NCBI GenBank assembly: GCA_025059205.1
Contig: JANXDS010000001.1
Coordinates: 361,582-425,581, forward strand
Origin: Aigarchaeota archaeon
Lineage (GTDB): Archaea; Thermoproteota; Nitrososphaeria_A; Caldarchaeales; Wolframiiraptoraceae
Reading direction: 5' to 3'
DNA: 64,000 bases
The notes under the pieces were generated by a model that worked only from the letters and a program-made list of their open reading frames with translations, made no database searches and had not been told where the DNA came from. This document shows positions 3 to 63,192 of the stretch, in pieces. The translations under genes were made by a program, and so were the position numbers. Position 1 is the stretch's first letter, and each line of letters starts with the position of its first letter.

Positions 3-1430
3 ATATTCCCTGAGACGTAGTGCCAACTCTACCTCAAAGGCTCCGCCGCCGTAGACAACCTTACAGCATTCTCTGACAAGAGAAAAAACTGGAAGCGAAT
101 GCTTAAGGCACCTCTCCACATCGCTCTGTAGTAGATTTGTCACGCCTCTAAGCAGAATGGTAACGCTTTTTGGCTTCTTGCATTTATGGACGAAGATCGC
201 CCTCTTCCCGTCCAAGTCAACCTCCTCTACGATTCCTGCCCACCCAAGGTCTGAACCTTCAAGTAGTGTTGCCTTTGCCGGCAGTGCGTTAACCGCTCTA
301 ACTATTAACTCAACTTCTGGATGCGGAAGTCCATATATCATAGCAATTCCTGCTTTTGCGAGCTGTTCGATAGCTATAGGATCTACCCCTTTTTCTACGA
401 CGACAAAGCCAACGTTGAAGTCCGTAATTTTTTTAATCAGGTCGGAGATGTATGCGTTTTTATCCTCTAGCAACCTCTTTAATCCTACATCACCGAGCTC
501 CAAAGAATAGTCTAGATAACGCCCAATTTTTTCACTCACCCTTAGCTCGTCTTTAATTACGGCGATCCTTGTGTTCTCTATCCTTTTCGGCATACCTGGA
601 TGGGCCATCTCCTTGAAGACAACAACGCCGTCCAAAACAAAAGAGTCTTCAAGTGTTCCACTTTCAACGGCTTTGATATCGACTACTTTATCCACATCGA
701 TAGACGTCAACTCATCTATTCCGACAATCTCCACAACCTTTTGTATGATGCTTGCAAACTTTTGCCGGATGTTTTCAGGTAATCTATTCATCACGCTCGT
801 CTTCATAACTAACATTAGCATTTTTTCACGTTGAGATGAGGCATCAATAGACAGTTGTTCCGCTACGCGTAGGCTTTGGTTGAGCGCATCTATGAGCCCG
901 TCAAGTATTGTCGATATGCTAAGACCTTTCAGCATAAGCTCTCTACACCTCTCCAAAATCTTTCCGCCCAATATGATCGTGTACACGGCACCATCACCAG
1001 CAGTCCTGGACATAGCTAAACCGGCGCCTGCCATGAGTTGGGCTATTGGGTGCACCAATCCCACTTTCTTTAGAATGGTCCGGATGTCGCTTGCTAGGTA
1101 CTTTAGACCTCCTTCATCTGTTATCAACTTACTCGTTCTGAATGGTCCATAAAGCCCTGACACGAACTCAGTCATCCAATGAACTGCAGAAAATTTCTCG
1201 GATTGGGCATCCTCTCCGAGCTTCAGCTCAGAGCTTATGCTGAGCACGGACGCCGGCTTACCGTCGACATATATTGTGGGCTCTGGTACAGATTCGTGCG
1301 ACAGAGGCAACATTCTTTGGTCAAACTTAGCCAGCTTGGCATGACCTCTATCGAACTTCTCGAAGAACAATCTTTGGGAAATTGTTGGTGCAAAATCCCT
1401 ACCCCTAAACCTATGAGCGGATGTAACCAT
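3..1430 (-). CDS. Divergent group II chaperonin (thermosome-like) subunit, running off the window start
   Basis: Manual translation from ATG at 1430 is open to position 3. Chaperonin landmarks: GPFRTSKLI, DIRTIL..VHPIAQLM, AGDGAVYT, LDGVVVFKEMAHPGMPKRIENTRIA, VEKGVDP, KPKSVTILLRG, VVYGGGAFEVELALRLREY. Not in the ORF track because there is no stop in the window. Confidence 0.85.
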   Translation of the reverse strand, partial: MVTSAHRFRGRDFAPTISQRLFFEKFDRGHAKLAKFDQRMLPLSHESVPEPTIYVDGKPASVLSISSELKLGEDAQSEKFSAVHWMTEFVSGLYGPFRTSKLITDEGGLKYLASDIRTILKKVGLVHPIAQLMAGAGLAMSRTAGDGAVYTIILGGKILERCRELMLKGLSISTILDGLIDALNQSLRVAEQLSIDASSQREKMLMLVMKTSVMNRLPENIRQKFASIIQKVVEIVGIDELTSIDVDKVVDIKAVESGTLEDSFVLDGVVVFKEMAHPGMPKRIENTRIAVIKDELRVSEKIGRYLDYSLELGDVGLKRLLEDKNAYISDLIKKITDFNVGFVVVEKGVDPIAIEQLAKAGIAMIYGLPHPEVELIVRAVNALPAKATLLEGSDLGWAGIVEEVDLDGKRAIFVHKCKKPKSVTILLRGVTNLLQSDVERCLKHSLPVFSLVRECCKVVYGGGAFEVELALRLREY

Positions 1431-1786
1431 CTTTAACTAAAACTCGGGCATTCGTATATAAAATTTCCCATTAAAAACTCTGTGGTATGTTTACAAAGCG
1501 TTCATGATGACCCGATTTTAAGACGAATTGCGCTATTCATACGACTCGTCGTGCGGAGTAACGTTAAAGGAGCGACGAAATACTCACCTCAATCTTACTT
1601 GTATGTGGTAGCAGCTATCGTGAAAAAATATTGATAAGCACGTGAGCAATAATATTAAAAGGGGTTTGTGGTTTGCACAACTCCTACGCTTTGTTAAAAA
1701 TGTTAAGAAACACTTTCAATCCTAACAAGATGATCGGGATGCACCTCATAAAAATTCTGAGGTAAACATTCTGAGGTTGTAAGAGG

Positions 1787-3052
1787 GTGGTGACAGATAG
1801 GATGTCGGGTCAACATTTTAGAAAAGATGTTGATGTGTGGAGTTTAGCCGACGAGTGGGGTCCAGAAAAGGTCATACAGGTTTACGACCCGCATACGAAG
1901 ATGCAGGGTGTTTTGGTTATTGACAACACCGCGATGGGCCCAGGAAAAGGCGGAATAAGGTTCCAACCGACTGTAACGCCTCAAGAAGTTTTTCTACTTG
2001 CGAGAGTCATGACCTGGAAGTGTGCTATGGCCGGACTACCGTTTGGTGGCGCAAAAGGAGGTATTAGAGGTAACCCCTTAGAAGTTGATAGGGTAGCTTG
2101 GGTTAGGGCTTTCGCGAAGGCCATTAAACCATACGTACCGCTGCAATACATAGCGGCTACGGATATGGGGACAACGGAGATGGATATGGCTGTGTTTGCG
2201 CATGAGATAGGCGACATGAAGGCTTGTACGGGTAAGCCTACTGAGTTAGGAGGCATACCTCACGAGCTAGGCACTACGGGCTACGGTGTAGCAATCGCAA
2301 CGGACTTGTCGCTTAAGATTCTTAACAAGTTAAACATACTGAATATAGAACCAAAGGAGGCTAGGGTTGCCATACAGGGGTTCGGTAACGTAGGCTCGTT
2401 TACAGCAAAGTTCCTCGACGAGATGGGATACAAAGTTGTTGCCATAAATGATGCATCAGCCTGCATATACGACCCAAACGGTTTGGACATACCGAAGATA
2501 ATGGAAGAACTAAAACTGCTGAGAACAAAAGTGAAAACCCCTATGCTTAAAGATCTGGGCACTGAGCTAAAAGAACATAGGGATAGAATATTCGAGAAAG
2601 AGGCGGACATATTCATACCGGCAGCGACCTCGCATACGATAAATGAACAAACCGTATACAATCTCATCTCATCCAAAGTGAAGATGGTTGTCGAGGCTGC
2701 AAACATACCGACGACGAAGGATGCAGAAAGCATACTACAGAAAAACGGCGTATGGGTGATGCCGGACTTTCTTGTTAACGCAGGTGGCGTTATCGGCTCC
2801 TATGTTGAGTACATAGGTGGAACCGAGGCGCAGGCGTTTGAGTTGATTAAGTATAAAATAACTACTAACGTAAAGAGAGTTCTAATAGAGTCTGCGCACT
2901 CAAATCGTCCACCCAGGGTCGTTGCTGAAGAGGTAGCGAAAAGAAGGGTCAGAAAAGCGATGCTGTTGAGGGAGGGTGCGATAGACGTGGCCACGGAAGC
3001 ATATGCCCGCGAAGAATTGGAGGAGTATATGTGGAGGGCTGAGGACCTGTAA
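1787..3052 (+). CDS. Glu/Leu/Phe/Val dehydrogenase family protein (divergent GDH paralogue)
   Basis: GPGKGGIR, MTWK, GGAKGG, GFGNVG Rossmann motif, VEAANIP, PDFLVNAGGV. Confidence 0.9.
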   Translation: MVTDRMSGQHFRKDVDVWSLADEWGPEKVIQVYDPHTKMQGVLVIDNTAMGPGKGGIRFQPTVTPQEVFLLARVMTWKCAMAGLPFGGAKGGIRGNPLEVDRVAWVRAFAKAIKPYVPLQYIAATDMGTTEMDMAVFAHEIGDMKACTGKPTELGGIPHELGTTGYGVAIATDLSLKILNKLNILNIEPKEARVAIQGFGNVGSFTAKFLDEMGYKVVAINDASACIYDPNGLDIPKIMEELKLLRTKVKTPMLKDLGTELKEHRDRIFEKEADIFIPAATSHTINEQTVYNLISSKVKMVVEAANIPTTKDAESILQKNGVWVMPDFLVNAGGVIGSYVEYIGGTEAQAFELIKYKITTNVKRVLIESAHSNRPPRVVAEEVAKRRVRKAMLLREGAIDVATEAYAREELEEYMWRAEDL

Positions 3053-3107
3053 GCGTTTTTATATTCAAAAGACATTTATGGTGTGAATATGTGCTAAGTT
3101 TATACGA

Positions 3108-4358
3108 ATGGTGTTGAATATGAGTTTCCTGTCGTATGTAACGGCCCAGTTCGAAGAGGCAGCGCAAACGCTAGGTCTAAGTCAGGATCTCTGTGAGGTT
3201 CTGAGGAAGCCTGAGCGTAGTATAACGGTGTCCATACCTTGTAGGATGGACAACGGTGAACTTAGGGTTTTCACCGGCTATAGAGTTCAGCACAATTCTG
3301 CAAGGGGACCGTACAAGGGCGGTATAAGGTACCATCCAGACGTAACTCTCGAAGAAGTATCAGCATTAGCTATGCTGATGACTTGGAAGTGTGCCGTGGT
3401 GGATGTGCCGTTTGGTGGCGCAAAAGGAGGGATAAAGTGTGACCCAAAAACTATGACTCAATCAGAACTCGAAAGGCTTACTAGAAAATATACTATGGCG
3501 ATCGCAAACAACATAGGTCCCTACCTGGACATACCCGCTCCCGACGTTTACACGGATGCCCAGACGATGGCTTGGATGATGGACACGTATAGTAAGATAA
3601 AGAACGAGCCGACGCCCGCGGTCGTGACCGGTAAGCCCATTATCTTAGGCGGAAGCGAAGGTAGGAATGAGGCTACGGGCATGGGTGCGGCTATCATTAC
3701 AAGGGAAGTCAGCAAGCACCTAGGAAAGCCGTTGAAGGGCGCTAGGGTAGTTGTGCAGGGATTCGGGAACGCAGGCTACGTATCGGCTAAGCTGCTTCAG
3801 GATATGGGTTGTAGGATTATAGCCGTAAGCGACTCAAAAGGCGGCATATACTCTCATGAACAACTCAATGTCGAAAAAGTGTTGGAGCATAAAAGAAGGA
3901 CGGGCTCCGTCATAAACTACGAAAAGACTGAGAACATAACGAACGAAGAGCTCCTGGAGCTGGAATGTGACTATATGATCCCCGCTGCTATCGAGAACGT
4001 GATAACAGCAAAGAATGCGGACAGAATCAAGGCGTCAGCCATAATAGAAGCGGCTAACGGACCGACTACTCCAGACGCGGACAAAGTTTTGTACGAAAGG
4101 GGCATTCTCGTTGTACCAGACATCTTGGCTAGCGCAGGCGGCGTGACCGTCAGCTACTTTGAGTGGGTTCAAAACCTCACGCGAACTAAATGGTCAGCCG
4201 AAGAGGTTAGGGCTAACTTGGAGAAGAAGATGGTGAAGTCATTCGATGAAGTCATAAGGTCAGCTAAAGAGTATGGAGTGAATGCACGGCAAGGAGCGAT
4301 GATTGTCGCGGTGAAAAGGGTCGCGGAGGCGATAAAGGCTTTAGGGAGCTGGCCTTAA
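3108..4358 (+). CDS. gdhA: Glutamate dehydrogenase (canonical)
   Basis: GYRVQHNSARGPYKGGIRY, MTWK, GGAKGG, PAPDVYT, GRNEATG, GFGNAG, GGVTVSYFEW. Confidence 0.95.
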   Translation: MVLNMSFLSYVTAQFEEAAQTLGLSQDLCEVLRKPERSITVSIPCRMDNGELRVFTGYRVQHNSARGPYKGGIRYHPDVTLEEVSALAMLMTWKCAVVDVPFGGAKGGIKCDPKTMTQSELERLTRKYTMAIANNIGPYLDIPAPDVYTDAQTMAWMMDTYSKIKNEPTPAVVTGKPIILGGSEGRNEATGMGAAIITREVSKHLGKPLKGARVVVQGFGNAGYVSAKLLQDMGCRIIAVSDSKGGIYSHEQLNVEKVLEHKRRTGSVINYEKTENITNEELLELECDYMIPAAIENVITAKNADRIKASAIIEAANGPTTPDADKVLYERGILVVPDILASAGGVTVSYFEWVQNLTRTKWSAEEVRANLEKKMVKSFDEVIRSAKEYGVNARQGAMIVAVKRVAEAIKALGSWP

Positions 4359-6702: not shown

Positions 6703-7532
6703 TGCTCGACAGTTCCGCCCAACGCCACTATTTTTTCCTTTAGCTCCTGCACGGCCTGTTCTATCTCTATTTCGATCCTCTCAGAGGAGGGAGCGGTCGC
6801 CGTCAGATGTAACTCTATTATGGATACGCCGGATTCTCTACCCTTTGGGTGCGATTTTATGTAAACCGTAGGATGTCTTGATATAACTTCTTTTATTGCA
6901 GGGGCTAGCGCGGACTCTATGATGTCCTTTGCTATGAGTATCTTCTCGACGGTGTACGTGCGTTTTATTGATTTTTGGATTATCGGCAATAGCTCGTTCT
7001 CAAAGATATCCATCAACTCCGCCGGAACGCCGGGTAGGCAAGCTATCCTTTGACGGCCGAATTTTACAAGTACGCCTGGTGCCGTACCCACACGATTCCT
7101 CAAGGGTATGGCGCCCGCTGGAAGTTCGGCCATCTTCCTCCGCTCTGGCGTTATTTCCAAACTCTTGATTATGCCGCGCTCGAACATGTCCTTGTACTTT
7201 TCCACTATCATCTGATACGCTTGCTTGTTCAACTTTATTGGCCTCTTTATGGCCTTAGCGACACCAATTAGCGTCATATCGTCAAAAGTGGGTCCAAGAC
7301 CGCCACTCGTTATTATCCACTCCGTATCCCTTTTCAGAGCCTCCCTCACGGCCGATGAGATCTCAGATAAATCGTCCCTAACGTCTGTAATCCTTCTAAC
7401 GAATCCGCCGATCTCTGTAATCTTTTTAGCTAACCAGTTCGCGTTCGTGTTAACAACCCTGCCTATCAGCAACTCGTTTCCGATACTTATTATCTCGAAA
7501 GTAGTCTGTTTATTTCGAGTCTTACGAACCAA
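6699..7532 (-). CDS. CinA N-terminal / molybdopterin-binding-domain protein
   Basis: SIGNELLIGRVVNTNANWLA, SGGLGPTFDDMT, LPGVPAE. Confidence 0.85.
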   Translation of the reverse strand: MVRKTRNKQTTFEIISIGNELLIGRVVNTNANWLAKKITEIGGFVRRITDVRDDLSEISSAVREALKRDTEWIITSGGLGPTFDDMTLIGVAKAIKRPIKLNKQAYQMIVEKYKDMFERGIIKSLEITPERRKMAELPAGAIPLRNRVGTAPGVLVKFGRQRIACLPGVPAELMDIFENELLPIIQKSIKRTYTVEKILIAKDIIESALAPAIKEVISRHPTVYIKSHPKGRESGVSIIELHLTATAPSSERIEIEIEQAVQELKEKIVALGGTVEQ

Positions 7533-7630
7533 CCGTTAGCACCAAGATACATTTTATAGATTTATGCCTTAAACCTTTCCTAAATTCATTTGACGGCAAA
7601 ATTCATATAGAAAAACTAGTCAACTTTGGA

Positions 7631-8323
7631 TTGCGGCCTGGGATGTTGGGACACCGCACGATTAAGATGCCTGACAACCTTATAGCTGTTGAAACTAAGA
7701 AAGCATTCGCTGAGTTGTCCCAGAGAAATCTTGATGACGTTGCCAGAAAATGCGCTGTCGCATACATACCTCCCCGTGAGTCGAGTGCCAAAGGTAGGTT
7801 CATAATAACCTTCCTCAACAGGACGTACTCAGTCGAGGTTTCTGAAGAGCGCGTCGTTGACCTACTGACCGACAAACCCGCGGCCGTAAACGTTCAGTAT
7901 ATAATCCTCAAATACCTCGTAACCGGCGATGGTACGCCGCTAAGCGCTACATGGGTTAACTATAAAGACATTGCCGGAGCAACTCCATACATCAGGGAGT
8001 TTGAAGATTTTGTTTTAAAACGGTTAGTCAAGAGGTTCGGCAATATGGTGGACGCATACGAATACGCCTGCAAAATACTGGGCGGAAAGCGGGAAAAATT
8101 GGGAGGCGTAAGTTTTTCTTTCCTAATACTTCCGAGAGTCCGAATACTTTGTCAGCTTTGGGCGGCCGAGAAGCAGGAGTACGTACCGGCGGTGGCTAAT
8201 GTCTCGTTTAGCGCAAATTCTGAAAAGTTCCTTCCTGCTCGTGAACTTGGTATGGCGTCGCTGTTGTTGGTGGATATGTTAGAAAAAGAAGCGAACAAAT
8301 ACGCGCAACCTGAACGTTTTTAA
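7631..8323 (+). CDS. DUF3786-like protein (start codon uncertain)
   Basis: FIITFLNRTYSV, ILKYL, WVNYKDI, LPRVRILCQLW pattern recognised by eye. Confidence 0.6.
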   Translation: MRPGMLGHRTIKMPDNLIAVETKKAFAELSQRNLDDVARKCAVAYIPPRESSAKGRFIITFLNRTYSVEVSEERVVDLLTDKPAAVNVQYIILKYLVTGDGTPLSATWVNYKDIAGATPYIREFEDFVLKRLVKRFGNMVDAYEYACKILGGKREKLGGVSFSFLILPRVRILCQLWAAEKQEYVPAVANVSFSANSEKFLPARELGMASLLLVDMLEKEANKYAQPERF

Positions 8324-63073: not shown

Positions 63074-63186
63074 AGCCCGGTCGTCTAGCGGCCAAACGCT
63101 GGTCAGACGGGCTAGGGATCGCGGGCTTTGGATCCGCCGCGCGGAGAAGAACCCCGCGGACGCCGGTTCGAATCCGGCCCGGGCTA
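63074..63186 (+). tRNA. tRNA-Gln(TTG) with two introns (21/22 and 37/38, 20 nt each)
   Basis: AGCCCGG/CCGGGCT+A acceptor (A1-U72); both inserts form BHB motifs; mature length 73 nt. Confidence 0.92.
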
Positions 63187-63192
63187 CTATTT

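Follow-up and report, generated by a model that had tools for sequence, protein, structure and literature searches.

At the left edge of the 64,000-nucleotide stretch of an Aigarchaeota archaeon genome analyzed here (the window; assembly GCA_025059205.1, contig JANXDS010000001.1, positions 361,582 to 425,581 of the forward strand), we found most of a gene encoding a group II chaperonin-like protein with a heavily substituted ATP site. The substitutions recur throughout a clade of archaeal relatives, and the genes of that clade lie beside a cluster encoding a DUF917 protein, racemases and a solute importer. Both this chaperonin-like member and its linkage to the DUF917/racemase/importer cluster are new, and no description of a thermosome linked to a hydantoin racemase or a hydantoin cluster was found in the searchable literature. 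A conserved C-terminal tail and the genomic linkage, both of which go beyond a preliminary description made from the sequence, are the two most informative features.

A chaperonin-like protein with a substituted ATP site

The open reading frame (3..1430, minus strand, as are all features of the gene given below) begins with an ATG at position 1430 and remains open to the window edge. Its 476 amino acids are residues 1-476 of a 609-residue group II chaperonin-like protein, P0001; the other 133, with the C-terminal tail among them, are encoded past the left edge of the window. The 476-residue part matched Pfam PF00118 (Cpn60_TCP1) with 245.5 bits against a cut-off of 34.3. The best solved relative was the Thermococcus KS-1 thermosome alpha subunit (1q3s, about 30% identity), and the HMMER alignment to it bore out the degenerate ATPase motifs of the preliminary description. 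GPFRTSK (residues 95-101, 1128..1148) faces GPKGMDK, ASDIRTIL (residues 113-120, 1071..1094) replaces the consensus TNDGATIL and faces TNDCATIL in 1q3s, GDGAVY (residues 145-150, 981..998) faces the phosphate-binding loop GDGTTT, and ERCLKHSL (residues 439-446) faces ERALEDAV. The second motif retains Asp115, with the next Gly replaced by a bulky aliphatic residue, and the third retains GDG, with three of the three Thr residues gone. His444 (codon 99..101) stands at the catalytic Asp site, as had been claimed, and corresponds to chain residue 393 of 1q3s (Thermococcus KS-1 D393) and, by coordinate arithmetic on the alignment, to residue 386 of the Mm-cpn structure 3kfb (D386). Asn215-Arg216 (783..788) occupy the Gly-Lys site of the nucleotide-sensing loop, where Mm-cpn K161 has its role (PMC5220055). 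The glycine-rich nucleotide-pocket motif is kept as GGGAFE (residues 461-466, 33..50).

Additions are present at both ends of the protein. As query residue 55 pairs with 1q3s residue 4, the N-terminal extension is about 51 residues long, which agrees with the first estimate of about 50. This extension (residues 1-54, 1269..1430), absent from ordinary thermosome subunits and conserved in orthologues, contains PLSHESVPEP (residues 42-51, 1278..1307), a form of the clade-defining consensus PLxHExxPxP. The C-terminus was recovered from the protein database, where P0001 is full length at 609 residues and intact through the C-terminal equatorial domain. Residues 574-609, outside the window, form the 36-residue tail GRKLSESEYYYVKRTKGTSPERLRGLRKEYGLETLE at the place where ordinary thermosomes have a Gly/Met-rich (GGM-type) C-terminal tail.

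In two AlphaFold2 monomer runs (predicted local distance difference test, pLDDT, 80-81; predicted template modeling score, pTM, 0.73-0.75) the three-domain core and the lid were confidently modeled. The predicted structure is a complete group II chaperonin fold with equatorial, intermediate and apical domains and a built-in lid, and its best Foldseek matches were closed-state thermosome, Mm-cpn and CCT chains (target-normalized template modeling (TM) scores of 0.88-0.90). The lid (helical protrusion, about residues 296-337, 420..545) is kept with a small insertion, its tip being modeled at low confidence. The N-terminal 48 residues were of low confidence and the C-terminal tail was modeled as two short helices (residues 579-590 and 593-602, pLDDT about 60-67); in the second run, made with a deeper clade-only alignment, the tails were still not confident. 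Both termini of known thermosomes project into the cavity near the ring interface, and hence the N- and C-terminal additions would lie together in the cavity. These conserved additions may need oligomerization or a partner to fold.

A profile-free scan of 1.84 billion cluster representatives gave about 35 clusters (at 50% identity) having a C-terminal tail of the same type. Trees with other thermosomes from Euryarchaeota, DPANN, Asgard and TACK were built from core columns only, with the N- and C-terminal tails excluded, and were unrooted and included no group III sequence. The tail-bearing sequences split from all other thermosomes with support of 97 in a quick tree and 99/98 in a careful IQ-TREE analysis, and an inner clade that includes the window protein received 100/99 in the latter. 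Thus, the protein belongs to a separate, well-supported lineage. The tail-bearing sequences as a whole may represent either a clade or a basal grade; their long branches call for caution. Within the inner clade P42, L43, E46 and P49 of PLxHExxPxP are each 96% conserved, and the C-terminal tail follows LSEPExYYxxR...(K/R)(D/E)YG(L/V/I)E, which P0001 also has, with a core of E581 (100%), Y584 (96%) and R587 (100%); G135, E346 and E372 are further invariants specific to the inner clade. The lineage is found in thermophilic Caldarchaeales (Terraquivivens, 'Candidatus Pelearchaeum maunauluense' and 'Candidatus Caldarchaeum sp.') and in Bathyarchaeia, including Hecatellales. A description of a divergent thermosome clade was not found in the searchable literature, and the supplements of the Wolframiiraptor/Terraquivivens genome paper make no mention of thermosome, chaperonin or hydantoin.

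The preliminary description had allowed that the protein might fall in a well-described active clade. Full-length P0001 scored 322 bits against NCBIfam NF041082 (alpha; cut-off 450), 316 against NF041083 (beta; cut-off 400) and 309 against TIGR02339 (thermosome_arch; cut-off 671), thus failing all three and falling outside any described active clade, whereas a canonical Nitrososphaeria control, P0431, scored 820, 827 and 786 bits on the same models. The Bathyarchaeia member P0023 scored 408 bits against the beta model, narrowly above the cut-off, which explains its label of 'thermosome subunit beta'. Hence, some members of the lineage are named as ordinary thermosome subunits in the databases.

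Three other sequences encountered in this survey are recorded here. P0129 (581 residues), an inner-clade protein with both terminal motifs, is labeled 'thermosome subunit beta [[Eubacterium] cellulosolvens]' (WP_455367899.1), a bacterial label that reflects either transfer to a bacterium or contamination. In each of the metagenomic proteins P0122 (1057 residues) and P0133 (1047 residues), two full thermosome-like units follow one another head to tail; identity to a Staphylothermus thermosome is 46% and 42% for the two units of P0122 and 39% and 35% for those of P0133. Either these single chains are double subunits or the gene calls are artefacts.

Residue frequencies in 24-26 inner-clade sequences and 169 other thermosome sequences showed that the ATP-site substitutions are clade-wide and not due to chance. 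Position 444, which is Asp in 74% of the other thermosomes, is Gly, His, Ser or Arg in the inner clade, of which one member, P0126, retains Asp. Gly at position 98 (92% of other thermosomes) is Arg in 69% of the inner clade, and Gly at position 116 (93%) is replaced by Leu, Ala, Val or Ile. Positions 148-150 are TT(T/S) in other thermosomes and (A/S)V(Y/S/T) in the inner clade, where Thr is found in at most 3% of sequences at position 148 and 11% at position 149. Some basal tail-bearing sequences, for example P0132 and P0137, have a near-canonical ATP site. Mm-cpn D386A binds ATP without hydrolyzing it and its ring is locked open (PMC5019054). Judged from these residues, the window protein is unlikely to run an open/close cycle driven by ATP hydrolysis.

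The gene is under purifying selection. Orthologues of 609-613 residues (76-83% identity), all intact, were found in six genomes of species rank, of which four carry the name Candidatus Terraquivivens (Wolframiiraptoraceae, Caldarchaeales), and the window is therefore from a hot-spring archaeon resembling Terraquivivens. Pairwise ratios of nonsynonymous to synonymous substitution rates (dN/dS) between the window gene and these orthologues were about 0.075-0.10 for the whole gene and 0.08-0.11 for the N-terminal extension alone; in the C-terminal tail dN was 0.01-0.07 with dS saturated. A TATA-like element, GAAATTTTATATA (1455..1467, minus strand), lies 25-37 nt upstream of the ATG. Every Terraquivivens orthologue has preserved it, in support of the annotated start codon and of a promoter belonging to the gene itself. 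Degenerate active-site motifs might be expected of a decaying paralogue or a pseudogene, and pseudogenization of the then missing 3' part had been raised at the outset. However, no orthologue has a broken frame, dN/dS stays at about 0.09 when the tails are counted, the promoter element has been preserved and the lineage has gained new invariant motifs. We therefore rejected decay, the probability of which we regard as negligible.

Linkage to DUF917, racemase and importer genes

In the Terraquivivens relatives the gene order is two glutamate dehydrogenase (GDH) genes, the chaperonin-like gene, genes encoding a solute-binding protein (SBP), two permeases and a PotA-like ATPase with a TOBE domain, a DUF917 gene (PF06032/PF20906) and one or two Asp/Glu/hydantoin racemase genes. 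The window holds the GDH-GDH-chaperonin part, with the two GDH genes (1787..4358, plus strand) divergent from the chaperonin-like gene, and the rest of the cluster is expected to the left of position 1. The GDH neighborhood is conserved within Terraquivivens only. As the GDH pair fixes the synteny, the locus matches those that carry the importer/DUF917/racemase cluster on the other side of the gene, and this cluster was present in seven of seven syntenic Terraquivivens-type relatives with enough downstream flank.

More distant members of the lineage keep the same partners in other arrangements. The Bathyarchaeia proteins (36-39% identical) have the same partner genes nearby in differing orders, the adjacent gene being a divergent ATPase gene, a co-directional racemase gene (52 nt gap), a divergent DUF917 gene or a convergent binding protein gene. 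In the Pelearchaeum type (P0125) the chaperonin-like gene ends a co-directional array that encodes, in order, nitroreductase-like, DUF6092, DUF917, hydantoinase-A-like, racemase, ATPase and two permease proteins, and in the deep-branching P0135 locus it follows an SBP-ATPase-permease-permease array after a 22-nt gap. Some clusters add a hydantoinase-A-like protein, a NicX-like protein or a cyclodipeptide-oxidase-like pair. In the P0010 type an NCS1 permease and a Cys/Met-metabolism pyridoxal phosphate (PLP) enzyme replace the PotABCD-like ATP-binding cassette (ABC) importer and the racemases and DUF917 stay. Thus, the constant partners are the enzymes. NCS1 permeases are a cytosine/purine/allantoin/hydantoin family. 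At the P0010-type locus L010 the two genes occupy 6744-7934 and 12175-13521, with the PLP enzyme gene between the racemase and chaperonin-like genes; the gene content of this type hints at sulfur-containing hydantoin-like substrates.

We counted linkage over loci with at least 3 kb of flank, scoring a locus as linked if a DUF917, racemase, SBP, ABC, permease, NicX or HydA gene was present in the flanks. Of 39 inner-clade loci, 37 had cluster genes in the flanks; of 94 loci from other thermosomes, none did (Fisher p = 7e-31, with non-independent loci). At the two unlinked inner-clade loci the contig ends 120 bp past the gene (L004) or the gene is cut at the contig start (L097). Linkage was seen in six of six sub-lineages defined at 60% identity, in at least eight gene orders that include operon-like co-directional positions 22-52 nt from a permease or racemase gene. 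Canonical Nitrososphaeria thermosome genes instead adjoin RLI, Trm5/TYW2, geranylgeranyl reductase and IMPDH genes. The persistence of the cluster linkage argues for a specialized role rather than one in general proteostasis.

The gene set around these chaperonin-like genes is that of clusters already known to encode cyclodipeptide oxidase (CDO)-like proteins. A CDO survey described non-CDPS CDO-like clusters that comprise PF01177 racemase, PF06032 DUF917, ABC transporter and nitroreductase-like genes with a small partner, reported such clusters in Thermoproteota and proposed hydantoin/allantoin-like substrates (bioRxiv 10.1101/2023.09.25.559410). The chaperonin-like member is the new element, as the main text of that survey makes no mention of chaperonin, thermosome, Cpn60 or PF00118. 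The DUF917 proteins of our clusters scored about 98 bits against models of characterized thiohydantoin desulfurases (cut-offs 440-450) and hence are distant relatives of these enzymes.

A separate observation concerns the DUF917 proteins themselves. That of the Terraquivivens (Caldarchaeales) locus L001 (16368-17420) is about 79% identical to those of the Bathyarchaeia loci L011, L012 and L014, a similarity between classes that suggests that the enzyme genes either were exchanged laterally in recent times or are very strongly conserved.

Other features of the window

A tblastn search within the 64-kb window gave no second chaperonin. At 15227-17986 (minus strand) the window encodes an ABCE1/RLI homologue of 919 residues, compared with 599 in a related Nitrososphaeria locus. 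An insert of about 315 residues interrupts its Fe-S cluster domain between residues 65 and 381; the insert begins with C-LDPNTPVITETG and ends with GLIVHN directly before a Cys. Its termini (Cys1 ... His-Asn, then Cys+1) look like those of an intein; a Pfam search at 1e-5 gave no intein or homing-endonuclease match.

ARAGORN called a 92-nt tRNA-Gln(ttg) at 63096-63187 (plus strand). As Rfam at its gathering threshold gives only the other two tRNAs, this tRNA probably contains an intron. At 8906-11032 (minus strand) a single chain of 708 residues combines LUD, 4Fe-4S and CCG domains in a LutB-plus-LutA-like fusion, which in relatives is split (382 and 323 residues, L002) or fused (717 residues, L001).

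Possible roles of the chaperonin-like protein

We favor, with moderate confidence, a hydrolysis-incompetent chaperonin-like holdase, assembly factor or scaffold dedicated to the DUF917/racemase/importer cluster. Such a protein would have lost the cycle of opening and closing driven by ATP hydrolysis, would probably still form thermosome-like rings with the N- and C-terminal additions projecting together into the cavity floor, and would act independently of ATP on at least one cluster product at high temperature. The parallel would be with eukaryotic BBS6, BBS10 and BBS12 serving one client complex. BBS6/MKKS, BBS10 and BBS12 belong to group II as divergent paralogues that have acquired extra segments and whose ATP-site motifs have eroded; they occur only in eukaryotes, act with CCT and have one dedicated client system, BBSome assembly. 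These proteins would be the closest functional likeness, sharing an eroded ATP site and, as proposed here, dedication to one client system, although that client system is entirely different.

Compared with archaeal thermosome subunits (Thermococcus KS-1 alpha, 1q2v/1q3s; Methanococcus maripaludis Mm-cpn, 3kfb/3ruq), the protein has the same three-domain fold and lid over about 520 collinear residues (about 30% identity, TM 0.88-0.90) and shares GDG, GGGA and Asp115. It differs in that the catalytic Asp, the P-loop Thr residues, the Gly of GPKG and the Lys of the nucleotide-sensing loop are replaced, a helical 36-residue tail stands in place of the GGM type, about 51 residues are added at the N-terminus, the NCBIfam cut-offs are not reached and the gene sits in a metabolic cluster rather than a housekeeping context. 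Group III chaperonins (Carboxydothermus hydrogenoformans type) are bacterial and thermosome-like with an altered nucleotide-sensing region, are encoded in a dnaK-dnaJ-grpE operon, and are described as functional, giving heat-shock protection when expressed in E. coli (PMC5220055). They resemble the present lineage in being thermosome-like, outside the mainstream, altered in the nucleotide-sensing region and operon-encoded, whereas the proteins described here come from archaea, their catalytic site is degenerate and their genes adjoin a catabolic/uptake cluster rather than a chaperone operon. On host and gene context identity with group III was rejected, as the hosts are Caldarchaeales and Bathyarchaeia, apart from the one record with a bacterial label (P0129), and the neighbors are importer, DUF917 and racemase genes, not dnaK, dnaJ or grpE.

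Several observations weigh against a dedicated, hydrolysis-incompetent protein. The site keeps GDG, Asp115, GGGA and Glu546, the acid that binds ribose, and might therefore still bind nucleotide or, with His444 as base, hydrolyze it slowly. The importer/DUF917/racemase cluster of this particular genome is placed by synteny and would lie outside the window. The tails have low confidence in the monomer model (pLDDT 27-67), and the sequencing runs that contain the sequence are all DNA hot-spring metagenomes, with no RNA runs among them. Many phyla are reported to carry hydantoin-type CDO clusters (PMC10557607 / bioRxiv 10.1101/2023.09.25.559410), in a paper whose main text does not mention a chaperonin; the chemistry may therefore not need the protein everywhere. 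Finally, identities between Terraquivivens and Bathyarchaeia are about 79% for DUF917, about 65% for the ATPase and about 38% for the chaperonin-like protein, and hence the partners did not simply move as one block. That the linkage was kept or re-made despite such unlike histories nevertheless argues for selection on the association.

The preliminary description had likened the protein to low-activity CCT subunits or to BBS proteins, and a related explanation makes it a structural subunit without catalysis in an ordinary hetero-oligomeric thermosome, into which it would co-assemble. It would then tune the allostery of the ring or its range of clients in general proteostasis, with the synteny due to co-regulation or chance retention. 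The retained fold, lid and terminal beta-strands for intra-ring contacts would suit such a subunit, and several thermosome paralogues are common in Archaea (PMC5220055). We consider this explanation unlikely, although it deserves real weight, as linkage to one cluster that persists over two classes and at least eight gene orders is unexpected for a housekeeping subunit, the canonical Nitrososphaeria thermosome genes keep to housekeeping contexts (RLI, Trm5, IMPDH) and a shared cavity would be crowded if each subunit brought in about 90 additional terminal residues. CCT3, CCT6 and CCT8 are low-ATPase ring members that contribute little to hydrolysis. The likeness to them did not hold, since the P-loop and catalytic Asp, not retained in this protein, are present in each of the eight CCT subunits (PMC5413064), and the BBS proteins are the better analogy. 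An active specialized chaperonin that folds cluster clients by the normal encapsulation cycle, its remodeled pocket using other residues (e.g., His444 as general base), seems to us distinctly unlikely. The retained GDG (Mg/phosphate), Asp115, GGGA and Glu546 residues, the lid and a His that could serve as base all fit it, but position 444 is Gly, Ser or Arg in sister sub-lineages and so no alternative base is conserved, the Gly98 to Arg and Gly116 to Leu/Ile changes put side chains in the pocket, all P-loop Thr residues are gone and D386A alone abolishes Mm-cpn hydrolysis (PMC5019054).

The remaining explanation departs from chaperone function, the scaffold having been turned into a regulator or accessory that binds a ligand and serves the pathway or the importer, for example with the old nucleotide pocket sensing a hydantoin-like compound or the C-terminal tail docking on the TOBE-domain ATPase. 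The gene is last in an SBP-ATPase-permease-permease operon in two sub-lineages, and the new invariants His45, Glu46, Glu581, Tyr584, Arg587, Gly135, Glu346 and Glu372 could form a site. However, the P0010 type has an NCS1 permease and no ABC importer, so that the enzymes and not the ATPase are the constant partners; such a re-use also has no precedent and draws no structural support from the low-confidence tails. We find it very doubtful. A bolder form of the dedicated holdase or scaffold is an archaeal 'pseudo-chaperonin', a ring or cage of thermosome origin that would not hydrolyze ATP and would be indispensable to the structure of a hydantoin/cyclic-amide uptake-and-conversion system in hot-spring archaea. 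The terminal additions would form a new site on the cavity floor, and the cage might house or scaffold the DUF917 and racemase enzymes or pass imported substrate to them. We regard this form as quite unlikely; if true, a prokaryote would have co-opted a chaperonin cage for a metabolic pathway.

The usual view of group II chaperonins is of universal machines that use ATP to fold proteins in general. To our knowledge, the only well-known relatives that are both eroded in hydrolysis and dedicated to a client are the eukaryotic BBS proteins. If dedication of the present lineage to its cluster is true, client-dedicated specialization would have arisen independently in prokaryotes, and the protein would offer a simple thermostable system for the function of a chaperonin ring without an ATP cycle. 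It would also flag an uncharacterized partner of the widespread, functionally unknown DUF917/hydantoin-racemase/CDO-like clusters.

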